This document shows positions 12,502-53,261 of a DNA stretch of 64,000 nucleotides, piece by piece. Position 1 is the stretch's first letter, and every line of letters starts with the position of its first letter. Source of the stretch: Phycisphaerales bacterium (GTDB lineage Bacteria; Planctomycetota; Phycisphaerae; Phycisphaerales; UBA1924); assembly GCA_016793015.1 (NCBI GenBank), contig JAEUJD010000116.1, forward strand, positions 6,691 through 70,690, read 5' to 3'. A program made the position numbers and the translations under genes. The notes under the pieces are model-generated. The model was given only the letters and a program-made list of their open reading frames with translations, was not told the DNA's origin and ran no database searches.

Positions 12502-13854
12502 ATGTCTCGCCACTGGATCGCGTGCGTTTCCCGCCTCGGCCTGATCGCCTCGATCGTGCTGGCGTCGACCGGGCTGGGTGGCTGCTCGACGTTCGACAGC
12601 AAGCCCACCGGCCGCCCTGTCGCTTTCCGCGAGGAGCCGGATATTCGGGTGCGGATCAAGAAGAATGTCCTCCAGACCCGGATCGAGGGCCCCAGCCACA
12701 TGGTCATCCGTCCGACGACCGTGGTCCGGGCCGAGGCGGTGACGGGCCCGCTGAGCTTCCGTGGCACCGTAAACGGGATGGTGATGACCGACGGGACCGG
12801 TCATCAGCGGGAATTCGCCCCCGGAACCGATGTGGAAGTGCTGCCACGCGAAATGACCGAGGCGGAAAGGCGATCGAGCGACGGGTATAAGCCCGGCGAC
12901 GCGCTGGTGGTGGATGGGGACACGCATCCCGGCTTCGCGCTTATTCACTCGAAATCCGGCGATGGGGGCGTGCTCGACGTCATCGGCGTGATGCCGATCG
13001 AGACGTATGTGCCGGGCGTGATCAGCCATGAACTGATCTCGAGCTGGCCCCGGCAGACGTTCGAGTGTCAGGCCGTCGCGGCACGCAGCTACGCCCTGCA
13101 CGAGCGCGACCGCTCGCGTCGAACCAACGAGTACTTTGATGTCGAGAGCAACACCAGCGACCAGGTGTTCGGCGGGCTTTCCAGCCTGCCCGTCGCGATC
13201 GAGGCAACCCGGGCGACGCGGGGCGTTGTCATGACGGAAGGTGCGAGCGGACCGGCGGCCCGGGTGCTGCTCCGGACGTATTACTCCTCCACCTGCGGCG
13301 GCGAACAGGCCTCGGCCAAAGACGTCTTCCCGACCGCAGGCCCCAATGCATTCAACCTCGCCAAGCCCCTTCAGGCGCAGAAGCGGGCGCATTTCTGCCA
13401 GAGCGCGGGGCGGTATCGCTGGACCGTGAGGCGAAACGATGCGGAACTCTCCAAGCGGATCCGCGCGTGGGGAACCAACTCTGGGCATCCCGTCAAGGGC
13501 ATGAACCGATTGACCGAATGCAAGGCGCTCGATCGCAACGTCACCGGTCGGCCGATCCGCTATCAACTCACCGACGAACGCGATCAGGTCTTCAAGATCA
13601 GCGCGGAAGAGCTTCGCAATGCCTGCAACTTTGCCGTGCCGGGAGTGACCGAAATCACGAAAGAAACCCGCGTCTACAGCGGCAACCTCGAAATGTCGTT
13701 CGCCTCGGGCGAAGTGATCATCGGGGGCAAGGGCTTCGGACACGGCGTGGGCATGTGCCAGTACTGCGCCAAGGGAATGGCTGAAAAGGGCTGGGATTGG
13801 CCGAGCATGATGAAGTTGTTCTACCCGGGCGCGGGGACGATGAAGGCGTACTGA
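12502..13854 (+). CDS. SpoIID/LytB domain protein
   Basis: Lipoprotein-like signal ...STGLGGC. Motifs YYSSTCGG and GFGHGVGMCQYCA. ATG at 12502 lies inside a longer ORF. Confidence 0.85.
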   Translation: MSRHWIACVSRLGLIASIVLASTGLGGCSTFDSKPTGRPVAFREEPDIRVRIKKNVLQTRIEGPSHMVIRPTTVVRAEAVTGPLSFRGTVNGMVMTDGTGHQREFAPGTDVEVLPREMTEAERRSSDGYKPGDALVVDGDTHPGFALIHSKSGDGGVLDVIGVMPIETYVPGVISHELISSWPRQTFECQAVAARSYALHERDRSRRTNEYFDVESNTSDQVFGGLSSLPVAIEATRATRGVVMTEGASGPAARVLLRTYYSSTCGGEQASAKDVFPTAGPNAFNLAKPLQAQKRAHFCQSAGRYRWTVRRNDAELSKRIRAWGTNSGHPVKGMNRLTECKALDRNVTGRPIRYQLTDERDQVFKISAEELRNACNFAVPGVTEITKETRVYSGNLEMSFASGEVIIGGKGFGHGVGMCQYCAKGMAEKGWDWPSMMKLFYPGAGTMKAY

Positions 13855-13887
13855 GGCGATAGAAACTGTGAGGGCAAGAGCAGGAAA

Positions 13888-14967
13888 CTAGAAACCGGAT
13901 CTGCGATGCCGCAGAACCACTGCTCCAAATATTGAAGCTACTCCGAAGGCGCCTAAATACCATGGCAGGTGACTGGTGGTCGAGGAGGGGCTCGAACTTT
14001 CGGAAGACGGTGTCATTTTTCCGGCCGTCGGAGGCTTGCTATCGTGAGCGGCGGACGAGCTTTTCGCCATCGGAGGATCTTTGGGTATCGCGATTTCAGA
14101 GCTTGTCGATTTTTTGAATTCCGCCGGCACGACGAACATCGAGTTGTCAAGTCGTGTCGGAAAATCGATGCTCTTGACCAGGGTTTCGCTGCCGCGGGTG
14201 ATCTTGTCGTCGATTGTCGAGTGCTTCGAATGAATATCAAATGTCTCCCGTCGCCACCAGTTGGTTCGCTTAAACGGAACGACTACCGCGATTCCGGGTA
14301 CGGCTCGGAAATCATCAAACTCAAAGACTTCTTCCGCAACTCCGTGGTGAACGCCTTTCTCAAGCCGAATCAACCTTGGTCCTAGCGGCCCTTCGTTCGT
14401 GAGCTGAAACCGCTGGCCTGTGCCCTTTATCGTGATCGAGACTGTGCCCTTTCCCGTTTCGACGATGCGATCTTGGTTAGGGGTCGAATCGATAAGTCGA
14501 GCAACAAGCCAAGGCTGAAATTCGGAATGAGGCCAAGCGCCTTCTGCAAAGAGCATCGGCTCCGGAGTCTGAATTAAATCATCTGGTGTTCCGGAAAACA
14601 GAGTAGCATCTGGCCGAAACACTCGCAGAAACACCATCTCGCGCTTCCAATCGGCGAGAGGTTTCGTTGTTCCGGAAGAAAGCGAATTTTCTATGGGCGT
14701 TGGAGATCGATATTGTTCTTGAACGAAACGAAGGCCATCTGGCCATCGCATCAAAATGGTGTCGTCAAAGCGGACTTGAGTGGTGTCGTTTTTGCCTTCG
14801 ATGACGGGTCGCCCGACGGTCGTTTGAACAAGTCGAACACAATCAAATTTCTTGTTCTCGGCAATCCATTCAATCCACCAGTTCGCTTTTTCTCCAGCAG
14901 CAACAGCCTCAACTGCCGTAAAGCTGCAAGCAATGAGTAACGCAGTTGTGAGCGTCGATCCGCGCAT
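13888..14967 (-). CDS. Hypothetical secreted protein with C-terminal TM anchor (cassette 1, large subunit)
   Basis: Signal peptide, Ser/Pro-rich stalk, then LGAFGVASIFGAVVLRHRRSGF. The ATG overlaps the upstream stop (TGATG); an alternative GTG lies at 14979. Visibly lower G+C than the flanks. Confidence 0.55.
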   Translation of the reverse strand: MRGSTLTTALLIACSFTAVEAVAAGEKANWWIEWIAENKKFDCVRLVQTTVGRPVIEGKNDTTQVRFDDTILMRWPDGLRFVQEQYRSPTPIENSLSSGTTKPLADWKREMVFLRVFRPDATLFSGTPDDLIQTPEPMLFAEGAWPHSEFQPWLVARLIDSTPNQDRIVETGKGTVSITIKGTGQRFQLTNEGPLGPRLIRLEKGVHHGVAEEVFEFDDFRAVPGIAVVVPFKRTNWWRRETFDIHSKHSTIDDKITRGSETLVKSIDFPTRLDNSMFVVPAEFKKSTSSEIAIPKDPPMAKSSSAAHDSKPPTAGKMTPSSESSSPSSTTSHLPWYLGAFGVASIFGAVVLRHRRSGF

Positions 14968-15425
14968 CAGACTTCGCACGTGCAGCAGACGGGATTGTTT
15001 CCCGGGCAGCTGATAGGGTTCTTGAGACGTGGAACATTGTACGCGGGTTCTACCGTGCCTGTGCTAATGACGCTTGAACTGCATCTGGTGCCGCCCATTC
15101 CGTCTGATACGCAGTCGTATTTCTTGAACGAAACCCTTTCACTGCTTGGAGTCGGATTGCCGCAAGACTTAAGTCCATTGACCCCAGGGTCCACCGCTCC
15201 GCATGTATCTCCGTTAGGCGTCGTCCATTCACGGCACGTACACGGCGTAGAAGAAGAATTGGGTTCTGCCGGAATTTTGGTGTCCAAATTCACGATTTTG
15301 TCCCGACAATCTGGGTTGGTCGGTTGTCCATTGCACGGGGGGTCACTGTAAACCGGCTGGCCCAATGCGATTCCAACGCAGATCAAACCGCCTAAAATTG
15401 GAGTGATTTCGCGTATTCGAGACAT
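14967..15425 (-). CDS. Small Cys-rich secreted protein (cassette 1)
   Basis: Signal peptide MSRIREITPILGGLICVGIALG. Many Cys in the mature part (PPCNG, NPDC, PCTC, ... CPGNNPVCCTCEV). AAGGGG/GAGG lies upstream of the ATG. Confidence 0.55.
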   Translation of the reverse strand: MSRIREITPILGGLICVGIALGQPVYSDPPCNGQPTNPDCRDKIVNLDTKIPAEPNSSSTPCTCREWTTPNGDTCGAVDPGVNGLKSCGNPTPSSERVSFKKYDCVSDGMGGTRCSSSVISTGTVEPAYNVPRLKNPISCPGNNPVCCTCEV

Positions 15426-15513
15426 CCTCAACCCCTTTGTTGAAAAACTGTCGGTTTCCTAGTACGCTTTATCAGGCTACGGAAATGAAAGTAGTCTGTC
15501 AAGAGTACATGAG

Positions 15514-16281
15514 ATGCCCAAGCCATTAAATTTTCGAAAGGCCTTTACGCTCGTTGAACTGTTCGCAGTGATTGGAGTAGTCTGCCTGTTGCTCGCGCTA
15601 TCTTTGCCGCTGTTGGCTGCTTCTCGTCAACGGGCATTAGAGCTAAAGTGCCGACTTAATGTGGCGCAACTTGGCAGCTTGGTTGTGATGTATTCCGTCG
15701 ACTTCAAAAATTATTATCCGACATGGGTGACTGATGGCGCGTCAACAGCTACACACCCGGAACGCTGGAAGGCCTATGCCATGCAAGGTGCGCGTTTGTT
15801 TAACACCGAAAGATGGCTTTCGTATTCAGATTGTGGCTCGGATCAACCGTTGTATAGATGCCCGGCAAATCGGGAATTTCGGGTTCTCGGTGCCAAGGCG
15901 CAATTTGACTACTACGGCGGCGGTTCCATGTATGCTGATCCTGCATTTCTTGATCCAGATCAATCACCTTCTACCTGGAAAAATCGGTTCATCGGGCGCG
16001 CGCAAACCATAGATTCTGTTCGCTTTCCTTCGTCGAAAATCGGACTTTTTGAATTATTTGTTTGGCACGGGTGGCGCGGCGCATATTCAGCAACGGGGTC
16101 TTGGTCGACAGATAGCCTCTCAATGTTTACTTCAGATCGGCCTTTTTCAGCTTGGTATTTCGATGGGAGTGTTGGTTCACTTGCATTTTCGCAGGCTCTA
16201 GGAGGAGTCGACCGCGCCCCCGATTGGTATTCAGAAGCAGTATGGCTCACTGCGTTCGGATCTCGCGGGCGCGACAAATAG
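15514..16281 (+). CDS. Pseudopilin-like protein with prepilin-type N-terminal cleavage/methylation motif (cassette 1)
   Basis: MPKPLNFRKAFTLVELFAVIGVVCLLLALSLP. C-terminal WYFDGSVGSL resembles the DG motif of the planctomycete DUF1559-type family (from memory). Confidence 0.75.
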   Translation: MPKPLNFRKAFTLVELFAVIGVVCLLLALSLPLLAASRQRALELKCRLNVAQLGSLVVMYSVDFKNYYPTWVTDGASTATHPERWKAYAMQGARLFNTERWLSYSDCGSDQPLYRCPANREFRVLGAKAQFDYYGGGSMYADPAFLDPDQSPSTWKNRFIGRAQTIDSVRFPSSKIGLFELFVWHGWRGAYSATGSWSTDSLSMFTSDRPFSAWYFDGSVGSLAFSQALGGVDRAPDWYSEAVWLTAFGSRGRDK

Positions 16282-16301
16282 GAGAGCTTGGCCGTGGCTT
16301 G

Positions 16302-16901
16302 TCAGCCCAGCAAATCAATAACCATCCCCGCGATGATCTGATCCGCCGACTTGTTGATGTTGTCGAGGATCTTGCTCGTCTGCTGAAATGACGTGTAGAG
16401 CTGAGCGGCCTTGAAGAGCCGGACGCCCTCGGTTCGCAGTTTGCGTTCGGATTGCACGACATCGGGCACCTCGGGCATCGACGCGACCTGCGATGCGAGC
16501 CGTGCCGCGGCCTGGCTGCTCTCCCGATTCTGCTTCGTCAGGTACAGATCGAATGGCGTGCGCGGCGGGTTGGTCAGCAGCGCACGGAGGTACTCGTTCT
16601 GCGAGAGCAGGACGACATCAATCGGCGCCTGCGTACCCCGAGCCACAACCGGCGTCGTTGTGCCGTCATTTCGAATGACGGCCGGAACGAGCGTCGATCC
16701 CTGTTCAACTCTGTTCACCGGCGGGAGCACGCGAAGCCTTCTTTCAACGGCTATGCCAGAAACCGTGCGGCCGGGGCTGCTCCGATAAAGGGCGGCTCCT
16801 GGGCCGCCACGCCCGCGAGGCGGTCGAATCCTTCGGAGTGGCCGGTTCCGTCTGTGACGCCTGTGGCGGATTGGAAACGCAGCAGGTGGGACGTTGACCA
16901 C
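16302..16901 (-). CDS. Hypothetical protein (Arg-rich N-terminus)
   Basis: High third-position G+C in the C-terminal two thirds. A GTG at 16901 lies 8 nt after GGAGG. The start is very uncertain and no family was recognised. Confidence 0.35.
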   Translation of the reverse strand: MVNVPPAAFPIRHRRHRRNRPLRRIRPPRGRGGPGAALYRSSPGRTVSGIAVERRLRVLPPVNRVEQGSTLVPAVIRNDGTTTPVVARGTQAPIDVVLLSQNEYLRALLTNPPRTPFDLYLTKQNRESSQAAARLASQVASMPEVPDVVQSERKLRTEGVRLFKAAQLYTSFQQTSKILDNINKSADQIIAGMVIDLLG

Positions 16902-34893: not shown

Positions 34894-36209
34894 TGACCAA
34901 GTCAGAGAACTCGCAACGCGGCGTGCAAAGCCCCTGGTGGGCCAATGCTGGCGTGCGCGCTGCCGCACATGTTGGAAGCCTCGCGATCGTGCTCTACGGC
35001 ACGAACGCGAGCTATCGCATCATGACCGGCACCGAGCCGCTCGACCGGCGCTTCCGCGACTTCTTTGAGTTCTACAGCGGAGCCGAAGCGCTCGTCAAGG
35101 GCACCGATGTTTTTGCCGCGGGCGAACTCGGTTACATCTATCCGCCCCTGCTCGCCACGCTCCTGATGCCGCTCGTAAAACTCGGCATCGCGGGTGCCGG
35201 GCTGGTGTGGCTCATTCTCAATGCGCTTCTGCTGGCGTTCGCCGCGTGGCTCGGAGGCTGGACGGTCGCAACCCGGCTGGGCGTGCCCAAGGCGGCGCCG
35301 CTCGTCACGTTCATCGGCCTTGCCCTCCTCGCCGACAAGTTGTTCGGCGACATGAAGATGCAGCAATCCAACATCCTCATGCTCACCTGCTGGGTCATCG
35401 GCATGTGGGGTCTGGGTCGCCACTGGCTCATCTCGGGCCTCGCGCTCGGCTTTGGCTTCAGCATCAAGTACCTGCCGATCGTCGCGCTGCCGTACTTCGG
35501 CGTTCGGGGGCGTTTCAAGCACGTCGCTGGCCTTGTCGCCGGCGTGCTCTTCTGGGCCATGATCCCCGCGGCATTCATCGGCTGGCAAATGAATACCGAC
35601 CTCTGGCGCGGCGCAACATCCGGCCTCATTCACGCCGGCGATGGCGACTGGAAGACCGATGCAGGCCAAGCCCGCGTCATGAACACCCGCGAGTACGGGA
35701 TCTCGATCACAACCGCCGTTGTACGGACGGCCGATTCACTGGGCCAGCCGAAACTGGGCATGCCGGTCGCTGCGCTGTTGATGGGCGCGACCTTCCTTGC
35801 CGCGTGGTGGGTCTATCGCCGGAATCAGCAGCCGATGTGGCTCGGTCGTTTCGGTGCAGTTGAAGAAAACCGGTGGCCCGTGCTGCTGGTGGAATGGACC
35901 GGCCTGATCGTCGTCACGCTCGCATTCTCGCCCCAGACCAACTCACGCCACCTTGTGCACGCGATGCCGCTCGGTTTCCTGATCGGCGCCGTGATCGTGA
36001 CCGGTCGCAGCGCGGGCGTGCGCCGGCTCGGAATCGCGGCCGCGGCAATCTGGTGGTTCGGCATGGTCCTGCCGCCCTCGATCCCCTCCATGCAGGATGC
36101 GGTCTGGATGTGGAGAAGAGCATCCGGCTCATGCATCTTCATGATCATCGCATGGCTCATCACCGCCGAAGCGGTGTTGCGATCAACAAAATCAACTTAT
36201 TGCCGTTAG
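34893..36209 (+). CDS. Polytopic membrane protein, DUF2029/GT87-like glycosyltransferase
   Basis: GELGYIYPPLLATLLMPL followed by many TM helices. The start overlaps the upstream stop (TAATG). Confidence 0.55.
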   Translation: MTKSENSQRGVQSPWWANAGVRAAAHVGSLAIVLYGTNASYRIMTGTEPLDRRFRDFFEFYSGAEALVKGTDVFAAGELGYIYPPLLATLLMPLVKLGIAGAGLVWLILNALLLAFAAWLGGWTVATRLGVPKAAPLVTFIGLALLADKLFGDMKMQQSNILMLTCWVIGMWGLGRHWLISGLALGFGFSIKYLPIVALPYFGVRGRFKHVAGLVAGVLFWAMIPAAFIGWQMNTDLWRGATSGLIHAGDGDWKTDAGQARVMNTREYGISITTAVVRTADSLGQPKLGMPVAALLMGATFLAAWWVYRRNQQPMWLGRFGAVEENRWPVLLVEWTGLIVVTLAFSPQTNSRHLVHAMPLGFLIGAVIVTGRSAGVRRLGIAAAAIWWFGMVLPPSIPSMQDAVWMWRRASGSCIFMIIAWLITAEAVLRSTKSTYCR

Positions 36210-37348
36210 CCGGCGGGGAACGTCCATTTTCTTCTGAGGACAGTGACGCACGCAGAAACGATCAGTGTGATGCCCGCCGCAAGAAACCATGTTCGCCATG
36301 CGACGGTCCGATCTATGAGCGTCGGTGGCCCGCTCGTCGAGTTCAGAAATTGCGGGGCGACCGGCTTCGCCAACGCCGCGTTGTGAGCGACAAGTCGAGC
36401 GCTTGCCGCTTCATCGATCAAACCGTCTTTGCCTATCACGGATTCGGACCCTTGCCAATGGGCGAGCGGAGCGATATCGCTCCAATGAAACCGTTCCGCC
36501 GAAACTTCCGCAAACAAGGCCCTCGAAAACTTGAACCTGGAGCAGGTCAACGCGTCTTTGTCGGTGCGACTCTCGACCTCCAGAAGCATTTCTTCGGGCT
36601 GCGGTGCCGGATAGAGCGCCGAGCCGAGCGAGCCGGAATAGCGGACACGGAGGAGCACTTCAGGAGACATGCGGGTCACAACTCGGCTAATCGCACCGGA
36701 TTGTTCATCAATATCTATGTCAAAGTCTTCTGGCACCGACGACCGCACGCAGAGCAATCCGTTCTTTTTTTCAAAACGATAATCGTTTCGTTGACTCAAT
36801 TCTGAAATCAAAAGACGAGCGACAAAGCCTGGGGACATGATTGTTGTGGGTGAAAGCCAACGCTTTCCGATGCGATCATCCGTCTGGTATCGCAACGTGA
36901 CGATCTCGGCCCGCTTCGTACGGGATTCTATGAAAAAATCTCTGCTTGCGAGGGTTACATGAACCTTAAGATCTCTTGGACCGAGCAGTTTCGTTATCGA
37001 AGCCGATTCGCGACGCCAGTCTCCCTCCATGCGAATCCAGCTGGTTCCGTCCTCGCGCTCAATCTCCGGATTCGAATCGGTGCTGCCGAGAGCCTCGAGA
37101 GAATTTCCGAGACGACTAAAGTCGTCTCGAAAAGAAACCTTCCAGCCAATTTCAACGGAGGCCACGGCCTCCGAATGCACCGCTATCCCATATGCACGAT
37201 TGAGCGTTTCGAGAATCGCAGCATGGTCAGACGACACGACAGCGCCGCCAGCGCTTACGCAGAGTACGGGAAGCACTCCCCCGATGACGACCAGCATTTT
37301 GAGCCAAATCAAATTGACGCGGCGCGATAAATTCAATCCTCCGTACAT
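36206..37348 (-). CDS. Hypothetical secreted protein with C-terminal TM anchor (cassette 2, large subunit)
   Basis: N-terminal RR plus a hydrophobic signal. C-terminal WFLAAGITLIVSACVTVLRRKWTFPAG. The ATG at 37348 overlaps the end of the upstream Cys-rich gene by 16 nt. Lower G+C. Confidence 0.5.
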   Translation of the reverse strand: MYGGLNLSRRVNLIWLKMLVVIGGVLPVLCVSAGGAVVSSDHAAILETLNRAYGIAVHSEAVASVEIGWKVSFRDDFSRLGNSLEALGSTDSNPEIEREDGTSWIRMEGDWRRESASITKLLGPRDLKVHVTLASRDFFIESRTKRAEIVTLRYQTDDRIGKRWLSPTTIMSPGFVARLLISELSQRNDYRFEKKNGLLCVRSSVPEDFDIDIDEQSGAISRVVTRMSPEVLLRVRYSGSLGSALYPAPQPEEMLLEVESRTDKDALTCSRFKFSRALFAEVSAERFHWSDIAPLAHWQGSESVIGKDGLIDEAASARLVAHNAALAKPVAPQFLNSTSGPPTLIDRTVAWRTWFLAAGITLIVSACVTVLRRKWTFPAG

Positions 37349-37722
37349 GCCGTGGGACAAGGATCGCCCCCTTTCACAAGCGTTATGCTTTTCGGCGACT
37401 CGGGCTGCCATGGCCCAACACAGATTTTGTTTGTGCTGTCCCAAACTCCTATCTTTTCATGGCAGCTCGCGTTCGCGTGCGATGTAACTGTGTTCGCATA
37501 CTTCTTGCCAGCAACTTCTCGCATCGGCGCTTCATCGTTCGCACAACGGCGATGCACGCAGTTGCCATTTGGAAGTTCTTCGTCACCGCTGTCTGTGTCT
37601 ACGCATCCGGACTGGATGCTGTCACCGCAGTCGGGCGGGTTAGAATGTTCATCAGCCAGGGCGAAAGCGCCGGCAAGGGTGGCGGCACATGCGATACCTA
37701 TTCGGGACCTGAGAATTTTCAT
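37333..37722 (-). CDS. Small Cys-rich secreted protein (cassette 2)
   Basis: Signal MKILRSRIGIACAATLAGAFALA. Cys-rich mature part (PPDCGD, SGCVD, GNCVHRRCAN ... DPCPTACTED). An alternative ATG lies at 37737. Confidence 0.5.
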   Translation of the reverse strand: MKILRSRIGIACAATLAGAFALADEHSNPPDCGDSIQSGCVDTDSGDEELPNGNCVHRRCANDEAPMREVAGKKYANTVTSHANASCHEKIGVWDSTNKICVGPWQPESPKSITLVKGGDPCPTACTED

Positions 37723-38605
37723 GAAAACAGCCTCCAAGGAAAGTAGAAAGTTTCAATCCCCCCAAAATGTACTGAATCTTGGGGGCGGTGTCAATAGCCA
37801 AATTCACACCAGCCGCCGCTCAAAAAATCGATTACAAGCCTTTACAATCATTGAACTTATGGTTGTGTTGGGCACTGTGGCCATACTCATCGCACTTGCA
37901 ATTCCGAGGCTCGTTAAGACGCGGCAGCAGGCGAGGGATCTGACCGATCTCACAAAGATTCGACAACTTGGACTTCTTGTTACCGCTTATGCCAACGACT
38001 CGAAAGATCTTCCGCCCCAAATTTTTGCACCGATATTCGTGAATGGACCGCTCGGTATCCCGCCGCTCCAGATCAAGTATCGTGGCGCATCACTGACGGG
38101 TTCCTGGTTCACAAACGCAACCGTGTTTCACTTGGCCTTCGATGTACTGCCAAGCCCTGCACAAGTGCGGGCAACTGGATCGCCCACACGAATGTTCAAG
38201 GCGCACACAGACATTGGGACAACCGCGATGTATTCAGATTTCAAAATATCGGATGTGTATTACGCAGACCCGGAATATTGGTCCCGGGATCACCAGAAAG
38301 GGCCTGAACAATGGCGAACTCAGACTCTGACAAGCGTCGCCTTCCCATCCGCTAAGGGTTTTATGTGGCAGACGAAGCTCTATACAATCCCCGGTTATCC
38401 CGACGGTATTTACGGATGCTGTACCGCTGGTGTCCAAACCGCTGTGCTTTGGGCGGACATGAGTGCGAATCCACAGGTCGTCGCAGACTTGACATGGGGT
38501 GTTCCGAATGCGTGGACGTATGGCTCGGCAGGGCCTGTTTCGCCGGACGCAAAGGGGCCGCCTATTGACGGAACAGAACTTGGTGTGTTCGGTCGTGATC
38601 GGTGA
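37721..38605 (+). CDS. Pseudopilin-like protein with prepilin-type N-terminal methylation motif (cassette 2)
   Basis: QAFTIIELMVVLGTVAILIALAIP. Paralogous to 15514-16281 (RTQTLTSVAFPSAK vs RAQTIDSVRFPSSK). The only canonical in-frame start is ATG 37721, which gives an atypically long leader; the true start may be non-canonical. Confidence 0.7.
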   Translation: MKTASKESRKFQSPQNVLNLGGGVNSQIHTSRRSKNRLQAFTIIELMVVLGTVAILIALAIPRLVKTRQQARDLTDLTKIRQLGLLVTAYANDSKDLPPQIFAPIFVNGPLGIPPLQIKYRGASLTGSWFTNATVFHLAFDVLPSPAQVRATGSPTRMFKAHTDIGTTAMYSDFKISDVYYADPEYWSRDHQKGPEQWRTQTLTSVAFPSAKGFMWQTKLYTIPGYPDGIYGCCTAGVQTAVLWADMSANPQVVADLTWGVPNAWTYGSAGPVSPDAKGPPIDGTELGVFGRDR

Positions 38606-38650
38606 TGAAAATTGCCGGATGAGCTCGGCCAACGCCGCGCCCAAATGCGT

Positions 38651-49891: not shown

Positions 49892-51364
<1,473 letters not shown>

Positions 51365-51366
51365 CA

Positions 51367-52227
51367 ATGTTACCCGACCGGTTTGATGTCACGTTAGATC
51401 CGATGGGAATTCGCGGACAAGCCGAATCGCGACTTCGTGCATTGCAGGATGTTGCACTCGCCGCACTCACAGCGATCAAGGAATCGCCGAATGCTGCAGA
51501 CACGACTCTCAATGCAGCAGACGGAGTATTCCTGTATTTGGGCGAACCTCGCCGTATGGACGAAGGCCTGCGGTTAGAGACGACAACGTGGATTTGTCGA
51601 AGCGCTCTCGAGGACGCATTTGAAATTTTAATGGACTGTTGCGATGAGTCGCATCGCATATGTTTCTTGGCGCAAATGGGACCTGGACCGATAGCGCTTC
51701 AAAATTCTCTCGATCCAACGAAGGGCCTCAAGGGGTTTGTAGAAGCCGTTAGCACTGAGCGAAGCATAATCAAAGTCGACCGTGGCAAGGTAGAAGACAG
51801 ACTAAAGGGCCTGAAAGACAAGTATGGCGTGACTTTCCCTTGGGAGCAAGAGATCGATTCACTTCGCCGAGCGAGAAACTGCTTGGCGCATCGACTTGGA
51901 ATTGTTCATGGAGAGGACTGCCAAGACGGCAAGACTTTGACGATCCATTTGCGGAAGCTTGCGTTCACAATTACAACTGTGGACGGCAAAGTAGTTCCAC
52001 TCAAGACAGGCCCTCTTGGATCGCCGGTTCCGGGAGCGGCGTGCCTTTCCATGCAGATCGTGCCGACGAATTATGTTTTCTCTGTCGGCGACTCAATAGC
52101 GGTTGCGGCACCCATGCTTTCAGAATTGCTCACCACGGTGCTTTGGACGGCGATTGAGCTGACAACGTCCGTGGCGACTTACGTGCAAGCGAAGCTTGCT
52201 CCGCCACAAGACAAGACCACCGCCTGA
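51367..52227 (+). CDS. Hypothetical protein with HEPN-like Rx4H motif
   Basis: SLRRARNCLAHRLGIV (RNxxAH) in a helical context. Visibly lower G+C than its neighbours. The ATG lies 2 nt after the asnS stop. Confidence 0.45.
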   Translation: MLPDRFDVTLDPMGIRGQAESRLRALQDVALAALTAIKESPNAADTTLNAADGVFLYLGEPRRMDEGLRLETTTWICRSALEDAFEILMDCCDESHRICFLAQMGPGPIALQNSLDPTKGLKGFVEAVSTERSIIKVDRGKVEDRLKGLKDKYGVTFPWEQEIDSLRRARNCLAHRLGIVHGEDCQDGKTLTIHLRKLAFTITTVDGKVVPLKTGPLGSPVPGAACLSMQIVPTNYVFSVGDSIAVAAPMLSELLTTVLWTAIELTTSVATYVQAKLAPPQDKTTA

Positions 52228-52412: not shown

Positions 52413-53261
52413 TCACGGGCACAACAGCATGTCGTACGCGCCCGCAAACTCGACGAAGTCGGCATCATCCACGTAGCCGTCGAAGTTGATGTCACCGTCG
52501 CAAGCCAGCCCGAGCGTCATCGTCTCTTCGGTGATCACAAACGAACTCATCGCGCTCGTCGTGATTTCGTACGCGGAGATCGAGGCGACCTGCGGCGTCG
52601 CGGTGACAGCTGTGACTACGACGTGATCGAAGTTGAGCAGATTGCCACCGACGGTCATGCCCGTCTCCCAGCCCGGGCCACCGATGTTGAATCCGTGGCG
52701 CGGGGGCGGTCCCGGGTAGTAGCGCCACGACAAATCGAGACGAACAGCCGTGAGTCCGCCGGGGAAGACAAGAAGAGTGGGGCCGCCGGGAACGTTGGGA
52801 TCGAGGTTCTCTTCGGTGAACACGAGTGCGCCCTGGTAGTAATACTCGGCCGTCAGGCTGTCCGGATTGCTCTCGTGATAGTCGAACGACACCTGAATGA
52901 GGCCGCCGGGCTGATAGTTCGCCTGCATGGTGTTTGCTGTGCGCTTGACGTTTTCCTTCAGGTTCCAGCTCGCTTTGACCTTGAGTTCGCCGACGGAGCC
53001 CCCGCCACCGCCGCCGGAACCATCGAGCATCACGTGCATTTCGCGCGTGTCGGGATGAGGCAGCATCACAACGCCGTCGTTGCCGCTCGAGCCGATGTTC
53101 GCGACCTCAAGCCCGGCCGGCGACAGCGAGAGCTTCGCTGCCCCGAGCGGATAGTGGGGGCGATCATCAAGATTGATCGGTTGTGCGATCGCTTGCCCGG
53201 CGACCGCCGAGAGCGCGAGCAACCCGAGCCGCATGGACGTGGCGTGGTTTTGATTGGACAT
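52413..53261 (-). CDS. Secreted hypothetical protein with Cys-flanked dockerin-like C-terminal tail
   Basis: Signal ...ALSAVAGQAIA. C-terminus LACDGDINFDGYVDDADFVEFAGAYDMLLCP matches the tail of the astacin at 44516. Confidence 0.6.
   Translation of the reverse strand: MSNQNHATSMRLGLLALSAVAGQAIAQPINLDDRPHYPLGAAKLSLSPAGLEVANIGSSGNDGVVMLPHPDTREMHVMLDGSGGGGGGSVGELKVKASWNLKENVKRTANTMQANYQPGGLIQVSFDYHESNPDSLTAEYYYQGALVFTEENLDPNVPGGPTLLVFPGGLTAVRLDLSWRYYPGPPPRHGFNIGGPGWETGMTVGGNLLNFDHVVVTAVTATPQVASISAYEITTSAMSSFVITEETMTLGLACDGDINFDGYVDDADFVEFAGAYDMLLCP

Follow-up and report, generated by a model that had tools for sequence, protein, structure and literature searches.

A pilin-like gene divergent from two coupled genes forms a conserved module that occurs twice, in low-G+C islets, in a Phycisphaerales genome

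Results

The two islets and their genes

We describe a group of three adjacent genes that occurs twice, in the same orientation, in a stretch of contig JAEUJD010000116.1 from a Phycisphaerales bacterium; the whole stretch of 64,000 nucleotides is called the window throughout. In each group, a gene for a type IV pilin-like protein (A) is transcribed away from two tightly coupled genes, one for a small cysteine-rich secreted protein (B) and one for a larger protein with a C-terminal membrane anchor (C). The trio at 13.9-16.3 kb is referred to as type 1 and that at 36.2-38.6 kb as type 2. Comparison with other genomes indicates that the trio is a real, conserved module, and the best explanation of its two copies in the window is that they are two anciently diverged versions of one rare module, each with its own orthologues. 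The features are as follows.

Islet 1, 13855..16301, no strand: a low-G+C insertion of 2,447 nt, flanked by the SpoIID-like gene and, convergent with it, the gene that ends at 16302
A1, 15514..16281, plus strand: type IV pilin-like protein, 255 aa, type-1 subfamily
B1, 14967..15425, minus strand: small secreted Cys-rich protein, 152 aa
C1, 13888..14967, minus strand: 359 aa, with a signal peptide and a C-terminal transmembrane (TM) helix
B1-A1 divergent spacer, 15426..15513, no strand: 88 nt, G+C 0.43
Islet 2, 36210..38650, no strand: a low-G+C block between the GT87 gene (end 36209) and the ABC permease gene (end 38651)
A2, 37721..38605, plus strand: type IV pilin-like protein, 294 aa from its sole canonical start, type-2 subfamily
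B2, 37333..37722, minus strand: small secreted protein, 129 aa
C2, 36206..37360, minus strand: 384 aa, NCBI start TTG at 37360, alternative ATG at 37348

A preliminary description of this DNA, made by eye, had delimited the three open reading frames (ORFs) of islet 1, with the prepilin-type motif RKAFTLVELFAVIGVV in A1 and the C-terminus CPGNNPVCCTCEV in B1, and had described C1 as having a signal peptide, a stalk rich in Ser and Pro, a single TM helix near the C-terminus and a basic tail. All of this was recovered, as were the TGATG in which the B1 stop codon overlaps the C1 ATG and the recurrence of the same layout in the same orientation at 36206-38605, where C2 overlaps the 3′ end of B2 by 16-28 nt. 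In each copy B and C are a translationally coupled operon of two genes that faces away from A. The left edge of islet 1 is set by the stop codon of the SpoIID-like gene (13852-13854). From its position, the 88-nt spacer between B1 and A1 is presumed to hold both promoters; no sigma-70-type consensus was found in it, and no intrinsic terminator-like site was found in 13700-16450. NCBI records identical to the window proteins exist for A1 (MBL8886627.1, annotated as hypothetical protein JNK16_08200), A2 (MBL8886649.1, annotated as a type II secretion system protein) and C2 (MBL8886647.1).

The AT-rich compositional island that the eye had picked out is borne out by calculation, with a windowed G+C of 0.51-0.53 against 0.62-0.66 outside. 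In 1-kb windows, positions 14001-16000 have a G+C of 0.508-0.520 (flanks 0.65-0.66) and positions 36501-38500 one of 0.526-0.535 (flanks 0.62-0.64). The dip of both islets sits mainly at third codon positions, where G+C (GC3) is 0.47-0.55 in A1, B1 and C1 and 0.52-0.59 in A2, B2 and C2, against 0.72-0.84 in the neighbouring SpoIID-like, QueA, MurA, GT87, FKBP, permease and dehydrogenase genes. It had been feared that the adjacency merely reflects many pseudopilin-like genes scattered through such genomes. A six-frame translation of all 64 kb contains exactly two prepilin-type motifs, those of A1 and A2, so the pairing is not a by-product of scattered pseudopilin genes. The other genes of the window are housekeeping genes only (DnaB, P-type ATPase, MgtE, SpoIID, QueA, MurA, ZnuABC and IMPDH).

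The pilin-like proteins

A1 begins with a 10-residue leader, MPKPLNFRKA, which is followed directly by FTLVELFAVIGVVCLLLAL (RKA/FTLVE, the slash marking the cleavage site), and A2 carries LQA followed by FTIIELMVVLGTVAILIAL (RLQA/FTIIE at 37838). Both have a basic leader, a Glu at +5 and a hydrophobic helix, as in a class III signal peptide, and Glu+5 and the class III motif are kept across the A-family alignment. A1 and A2 are 29% identical over 183 aa (BLASTP, E=1e-16) and align end to end in the family alignment, which runs the full length of the proteins across both types and contains an invariant YADP, V.FPS.K, D.S and terminal G..D in a globular domain of about 230 aa. When the A-family profile is compared with the PDB, it matches geopilin (E=9e-8), PilA (3e-5), PilE1 (7e-5) and GspG (2e-4), and these matches cover only the first ~30-60 residues, that is, the N-terminal helix. 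The N_methyl family (PF07963) matches six of eight A-family members at E<=0.1 (best E=1.7e-5), and the NCBIfam models of GspG, ComGC and PilA match A only at the first 30-60 residues and far below their cut-offs. The motif and the N-terminal helix, both read from sequence, show A to be type IV pilin-like.

A possible link to DUF1559-type families had been proposed as a check, and membership of A in DUF1559 (PF07596, SBP_bac_10) was rejected. A1 scores 12.8 bits against a Pfam cut-off of 23.3, at profile positions 4-49 only, A2 gives no hit, faint matches occur in three of the eight family members at E<=0.1 (best E=0.025), and the family has globular-domain motifs of its own. Scores against the Verru_Chthon model TIGR02596 are 16.3-17.3 bits against a cut-off of 70 and cover only the first 27-33 profile positions.

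The start of A2 is unusual. Its ATG (37721) and that of B2 on the opposite strand (37722) stand back to back, which gives A2 a leader of 38 residues that is not conserved in either of two syntenic relatives (L006 and L007; loci in other assemblies are identified by L numbers and proteins by P numbers). At other type-2 loci (L095, L096) the divergent starts lie 3-24 nt apart and the A leaders have 27-45 residues; type-1 A leaders are of normal length, at 10-12 residues. Two explanations offer themselves: the coding region of each partner may contain the promoter of the other, or A2 may start at a non-canonical codon closer to the cleavage motif.

The two partner proteins and their limited resemblance between types

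In B1 the signal peptide is followed by GQPVYSDPPC, the mature protein has 12 cysteines and the C-terminus is CPGNNPVCCTCEV; in B2 it is followed by ADEHSNPPDC, the mature protein has 8 cysteines and the C-terminus is PCPTACTED. The mature count is even throughout: type 2 has 8, except for 10 in L083, and type 1 has 10-12. B is presumably fully disulfide-bonded. In a MAFFT alignment of the B2 family every aligned member has 8 mature cysteines, six of the eight cysteine columns are invariant and the first two cysteines are offset. Common to both types are a signal peptide, the pattern x-S-[DN]-P-P-(x)-C with a second Cys 6-10 residues later, and a C-x(2-6)-C pair inside the last ~10 residues.

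C1 consists of a signal peptide, a domain of ~270 aa, a Ser/Pro-rich linker, one C-terminal hydrophobic helix and the basic tail RHRRSGF, and C2 of a signal peptide, a domain, a linker and an anchor of the form W..W-TM-RRK. Both types thus run from a signal peptide through a domain of ~270-300 aa and a low-complexity linker to a TM helix with a basic tail. Neither B nor C matches any Pfam, NCBIfam or PADLOC family. Searching PDB sequences with the B2 profile returned only repeat-protein artefacts, and with the C2 profile only artefacts as well (designed Kelch propellers and TAL effectors), in both cases with no individually significant stretch.

Similarity had been claimed for all three pairs of proteins. 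It stands for A and not for the other two, B1 and B2 giving E=0.12 and C1 and C2 E=0.42 in BLASTP. Profile comparisons (hhalign, profiles of 3 to 11 sequences, local and global) are likewise non-significant, with probabilities of 0.6% (local) and 15% (global) for B and of 1-24% for C, where the membrane-anchor region alone aligned. With the anchors trimmed, the C profiles give a collinear alignment that pairs PW[LI]VA[RQ] with PG[LF]VA[RQ] at a probability below 1%. By these tests B1/B2 and C1/C2 are not recognisable as paralogues.

Conservation of the trio in other genomes

The same arrangement was found in eleven complete trios and in two contigs that are cut off upstream of B, at distinct loci and in distinct lineages, and wherever the contig reaches far enough, A is divergent from a coupled B-C pair. 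Type-2 trios of identical order and orientation are present in L006, L007-L010, L083, L085, L095, L096 and L097, and the B-C pair is seen in L098 and L099, whose contigs end upstream. Type-1 trios are present in L087-L089 and L090-L092. The co-localisation in other genomes that the preliminary description had called for is therefore real, since these trios keep order and orientation alike. All named source records, whether of carriers of the module or of closest relatives, are Phycisphaerales or Phycisphaeraceae metagenome-assembled genomes.

The closest view of type 2 comes from L006 and L007-L010, which are syntenic with the window over a dehydrogenase, the ABC permease, A (-), C (+), GT87 and two FKBP genes, and whose C2 orthologues are 43-46% identical to C2. 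Gene finders did not call the small B gene there, and in a tblastn search of L006 and L007 B2 matches a conserved open frame that lies precisely between A and C (E ~1e-29, 44-49% identity). The public calls at L006 4424-5329 (301 aa) and L007 3219-4280 (353 aa) over-extend A upstream and omit B, in L007 with the over-extended call overlapping the conserved B frame, and so automated annotation hides the module.

A HMMER profile of the C2 family finds only 11 proteins at E<=1e-3 among 1.84 billion cluster representatives. The full-length distant matches listed (P0013-P0016 and P0018-P0020) are 347-409 aa long and share YPAPQP, F.W.SIA and a W..W-TM-RRR end; P0017 (216 aa) is a truncated member, and P0021 (737 aa) matches the profile in seven short stretches. 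Loci were inspected for seven of the distant C members; each has, immediately upstream of C, a small ORF rich in Cys, and an A-family gene is divergent from B-C in L083, L085, L095, L096 and L097. As these distant C proteins are only 19-25% identical to C2, the linkage must be old.

Type 1 is sparser. C1 has no word-sharing homologue except itself among 5.8 billion proteins, and A1 has two homologues at 53% identity (P0022 and P0023), both inside trios of the form C-like (-), B-like (-), A (+) that lie between Dus and an ABG transporter, a context unlike that in the window. In these trios (L090 and L087) the mature B begins with the same GQPVYSDPPC as B1 and ends in PCP.GDC, and C is 22-24% identical to C1, with RWPD, FRPDAT, SPW[LI]VA and DFRA in common. 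A metagenome scan with the A-family alignment found two loci only, L093 and the truncated L094. Adjacency of B and C to A holds in every locus with enough sequence, with the single exception of L093.

These data bear directly on two accounts of the trio. One would see in it unrelated, fast-evolving orphan genes or mis-called ORFs brought together by chance in horizontally acquired junk DNA, and in the likeness of the two regions a coincidence, as the non-significant comparisons of B1 with B2 and of C1 with C2, the absence of C1 homologues from the word-indexed search and the uncalled B2 homologues in L006 and L007 might suggest. We regard it as very improbable indeed, as the pattern of conservation contradicts it: each of the two is found elsewhere, again as a trio, the B2 frame is conserved (E ~1e-29) with 8 mature Cys in every member, ratios of nonsynonymous to synonymous substitution rates (dN/dS) are 0.09-0.30, and the only two pilin-like genes in 64 kb both lie within trios. 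The other account, by which copy 1 arose recently from copy 2 by duplication within the genome and then drifted, could appeal to the same layout and orientation and to similar sizes, but it is hardly credible, for A1 is 53% identical to a foreign type-1 A and only 29% to A2, the B1 mature start GQPVYSDPPC is common to foreign trios and not to B2, and copy 2 is syntenic in relatives while copy 1 is missing from the closest reference relatives.

At some loci the genes next to the trio are themselves informative. In L083, A adjoins a secretin gene and a T2SSE ATPase gene, and in L096, C adjoins T2SSE, an unknown gene, PilO and PilN. A MauE/DoxX-family gene directly follows C in three loci (L085 6254-6688, L095 3045-3569 and L098 1615-2148); in L098 the C stop codon overlaps the MauE start, and in L085 the MauE gene has the low GC3 of the trio. 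MauE is needed for maturation of the disulfide-rich small subunit of methylamine dehydrogenase, and its place beside C in three loci fits a need of B for oxidative folding. Neither copy in the window has a MauE gene after C, and the 138-aa gene that follows C in L083 was considered and rejected, as it is not MauE-like.

Divergence, selection and insertion

At locus 2 the proteins encoded by the flanks are 83-97% identical between the window and L006 or L007 (with the exception of the second FKBP, at 70-74%), against 62-64% for A2, 44-49% for B2 and 43-45% for C2. By the method of Nei and Gojobori, dN/dS is 0.09-0.31 for the trio (0.11-0.31 for B2) and 0.03-0.18 for the flanks, and hence the trio genes are constrained coding sequences under purifying selection that evolve faster than their neighbours. 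Between the window and its relatives the synonymous sites of the trio are saturated, and those of the flanks have a synonymous divergence (dS) of ~0.5-1.2. Saturation of this kind fits either acceleration or allelic replacement, and the difference in GC3 prevents a firm choice between them.

The composition of the module is low in every host. Trio G+C is 0.56-0.58 against 0.63-0.65 in L006 and L007-L010, and in the hosts examined the GC3 of the module is 0.54-0.69 against 0.82-0.93, with a smaller gap in L096. Low GC3 in every host examined means that the composition is not simply a mark of recent arrival, and recent horizontal gene transfer as the sole cause of the low G+C was rejected, since locus 2 is syntenic in three lineages and low in each of them. 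The flanks of cassette 2 are themselves mosaic: the dehydrogenase gene groups the window with L006 (92% vs 80%), and the FKBP genes group L006 with L007 (97% and 87% vs 91-93% and 75%), a pattern that suggests recombination among lineages around the cassette.

Locus 1 shows presence and absence. In the two closest GTDB representatives, L011 (Phycisphaeraceae ACE_PLA17) and L012, whose MurA and QueA are 96-98% and 70-77% identical to those of the window, islet 1 is absent, and the SpoIID-like gene and the counterpart of the gene at 16302-16880 lie ~19 nt apart, against 2,447 nt in the window. A search of the boundaries of islet 1 turned up neither convincing flanking repeats, direct or inverted, nor an integrase or a tRNA. 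Five independent Logan assemblies (L001-L005) contain islet 1 at 99.8% identity on contigs of 2.1-2.9 kb that correspond to window positions 13809-16708. Four of the five contigs end at 13821 (the fifth at 13809), about one k-mer (~31 nt) inside the SpoIID-like gene from the boundary, and this shared end suggests a branch in the assembly graph, with filled and empty sites in the same samples. The right neighbour of islet 1, at 16302-16880 on the minus strand, encodes a protein of ~192 aa that is 66-70% identical in L011 and L012 and has no Pfam match; in a mechanical ORF list it runs on along the antisense strand of queA to 373 aa, an extension that is almost certainly an artefact.

Taken together, the low GC3 in all hosts, the faster evolution than the flanks and the presence or absence at a locus mean that the trio behaves as a cassette. 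By analogy, its low GC3, fast divergence and insertion or empty site resemble surface-antigen and pilin-allele loci and suggest an interface under changing selection. The same features could be claimed for a conflict-driven effector system, with B as a disulfide-rich toxin, bacteriocin or binding factor that is exported, C as a membrane-tethered immunity or holding protein and A as a dedicated pseudopilin that selects B for export. The trio does evolve fast relative to its flanks with an atypical composition in all hosts, locus 1 is variably present, one genome holds two divergent copies, and B is small and disulfide-stabilised. On the other hand, neither PADLOC nor Pfam gives a toxin or immunity match, dN/dS is well below 1, and C, with its carrier-like predicted fold, far exceeds the usual size of immunity proteins. 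This effector scheme shares its export mechanism with the explanation that we prefer and differs only in the role of B, and we think it distinctly unlikely.

A predicted LolA-like fold in the anchored protein

An AlphaFold2 model of C2, built from an alignment of 11 sequences, has a predicted local distance difference test (pLDDT) of 78.9 and a predicted template modelling score (pTM) of 0.69. It contains a long antiparallel sheet of 13 strands and an internal helix at 177-190, which bears the conserved PG[LF]VA[RQ]. The closest PDB structures in a Foldseek search with this model are as follows.

LolA 4ki3: E=8e-7
LolA 2w7q: E=1e-5
LolB 9tpm: E=4e-5
LprF 4qa8: E=1e-4
MucB and VioE: weaker

Foldseek probabilities are 0.99-1.0, and TM-scores normalised to the target reach 0.5-0.57 with LolA and LolB but 0.31 with LprF. 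The C2 domain is thus predicted to have a LolA/LolB-like half-barrel fold. The preliminary description had asked for LolA-like folds to be sought, and the structural side of that suggestion held for C2, but neither C1 nor C2 matches the Pfam or NCBIfam LolA, LolB or RseB families at E<=1.

This fold gives rise to another account of the trio, in which no filament is involved and the module handles or senses lipids or lipoproteins of the envelope, with C as a tethered binder, like LolA, LolB or RseB, of acyl chains or some other hydrophobic ligand, A as a DUF1559-like protein of the periplasm that is anchored in the membrane and stays unpolymerised, and B as a stable periplasmic cofactor. The top structural matches of C2 are indeed carriers of lipoproteins or glycolipids (LolA, LolB and LprF, with MucB weaker), A has its faint DUF1559 matches (12.8 bits in A1; three of eight members at E<=0.1), and most loci are not beside pilus machinery. 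Against this, no sigma or anti-sigma factor, LolCDE or lipoprotein gene is linked to the trio in any locus seen, all that is both recognisable and strongly conserved in A is its class III signal peptide with Glu+5, two loci adjoin genes for a secretin, an ATPase and PilNO, and the DUF1559 score is below its cut-off. We consider this lipid-handling account unlikely.

Other features of the window

A third low-G+C islet follows the AsnS-like gene (49892-51364), with a G+C of 0.536-0.554 in 1-kb windows. It includes a 291-aa ORF at 51352-52227 on the plus strand with a GC3 of 0.53 (AsnS 0.84) and no Pfam match, which is unrelated to the trio. At 52413-53261 on the minus strand lies a gene for a secreted-looking protein of 282 aa. 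Part of it is rich in Gly, and its C-terminal part carries DGDINFDGYVDDADF, a segment reminiscent of dockerins or calcium-binding repeats; Pfam gives nothing for this protein at E<=0.01.

Discussion

The linkage of A, B and C is, on the evidence of gene order across genomes, robust, and the B and C families appear undescribed. The preliminary description had put forward the trio as a functional unit, possibly a surface or pilus-associated module in which B would be a tip or ligand. Orthologous trios, dN/dS and the two loci beside genes of the type II secretion system (T2SS) or type IV pilus (T4P) agree with a unit, and the proposed paralogy of B and C finds no support. As to what this unit does, we infer, tentatively, that it could be an accessory cassette of a type IV filament system of the T2SS or T4P kind. 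The three genes may well be an exchangeable set of accessories to a pilus or to a secretion machine.

In such a scheme all three proteins would meet at the periplasmic face of the inner membrane. A would be cleaved by a prepilin peptidase and wait in the inner membrane, from where a T2SS/T4P-like machine would take it into its (pseudo)pilus to serve as a minor or specialised subunit. B may be the cognate periplasmic partner of A, either as cargo or as a displayed ligand. C, whose domain the TM helix would keep on the outer side of the cytoplasmic membrane, may serve as a tethered chaperone or docking factor that keeps B, or else the hydrophobic part of A, close to the place of assembly.

Several observations weigh against this accessory-cassette scheme. 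The 64-kb window holds no T2SS/T4P machinery or prepilin peptidase genes, such machinery adjoins the trio in only two other loci (L083 and L096), and in L093 a solo A homologue stands after accB/accC, with neither B nor C. The credentials of A as a pilin are imperfect: in most members the residue at -1 is Ala or Ser and not the canonical Gly, A2 scores 18.9-19.5 bits with N_methyl (cut-off 21.2) and A1 has no Pfam N_methyl match, TIGR02532 gives the A proteins 11.8 and 10.4 bits (cut-off 16.3), the GspG/H and ComGC/GE equivalogs of NCBIfam give 24-28 bits in the N-terminal part only (cut-offs 75-89), and type-2 leaders are unusually long or unresolved. The idea of a single module in two types leans on A and on the shared architecture, the B and C proteins of type 1 and type 2 being not detectably homologous, and C1 yields, from its single sequence, an AlphaFold2 model with a pLDDT of only 32. 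A LolA-like fold would point to binding of a hydrophobic ligand, which could equally mean handling of lipids or lipoproteins unrelated to any pilus, and a physical association of A, B and C is a supposition.

A more specific version of the scheme would make C a LolA-style pilin chaperone, whose predicted half-barrel would take up the N-terminal TM helix of A after prepilin processing and which could also hand the disulfide-locked B to A. We consider it quite improbable. Type IV filament systems are not known to have such a periplasmic chaperone step, by which a large pilin-like protein could be delivered or released without staying embedded in the membrane; the trio would then be a new exchangeable type IV filament subsystem in Planctomycetota. 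Even in the broader form, if a partner with a LolA fold acts on a pilin-like protein or its cargo, this would be a new accessory step in the biology of type IV filaments. With three small genes, clear topologies and one predicted fold, the trio is a concrete, testable unit. The C family is very rare (11 among 1.84 billion clusters), which implies a narrow ecological reach, and the lineage that carries the module is almost unstudied.

Four groups of known systems invite comparison. In Pseudomonas aeruginosa, pilA and tfpO, tfpW, tfpX, tfpY or tfpZ form cassettes of a pilin gene and an accessory gene, which exist as several divergent alleles. The accessory gene follows the pilin gene, from which a Rho-independent terminator separates it, and TfpY is reported to interact with pilins but not to have been found in assembled pili (PMC11841053). 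The present cassette is like these in that a gene of pilin type has one or two cognate partners of another kind tightly linked to it and comes in divergent types, and it stands between conserved housekeeping flanks from which it has diverged much further. It is unlike them in that B-C is divergent from A and not downstream of it, with no terminator found in 13700-16450, and in the nature of the partners, one of them secreted and rich in disulfides, the other anchored at its C-terminus and predicted to have a LolA fold in type 2; neither has a Pfam or NCBIfam match. A is also about twice the size of PilA, and we do not claim that it is a major pilin.

The minor pseudopilins GspH, GspI, GspJ and GspK of the T2SS and the minor pilins and PilY1 of the T4P offer a second parallel, as specialised pilin-like subunits that go with a non-pilin partner, and the role proposed for A, priming or cargo contact, would be alike. 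Those sets have four pilin-like genes where the trio has one, no PilY1-like protein is present in the trio, and the resemblance is confined to the N-terminal ~30-60 residues. In the superfold of LolA, LolB, LprG-LppX and RseB-MucB, the predicted C2 domain matches the LolA and LolB structures. Unlike the members of that superfold, which are soluble or lipid-anchored, C2 is ~100 residues larger, is tethered by a C-terminal TM helix and is linked to a pilin-like gene, not to LolCDE or an anti-sigma factor. Full-text searches of the literature found no paper linking DUF1559-type or pilin-like proteins with LolA-like partners.

Lastly, the DUF1559/H-X9-DG and Verru_Chthon expansions of the Planctomycetes-Verrucomicrobia-Chlamydiae (PVC) superphylum likewise set a prepilin N-terminus on a large globular domain and occur in more than one copy per genome. 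The A family differs from them in motifs of its own (YADP, SV.FPS.K and a terminal G.D[RK]) and in its fixed partners B and C. PVC-group bacteria carry large, unexplained expansions of pilin-like genes, and here one subfamily among them has two fixed partners.

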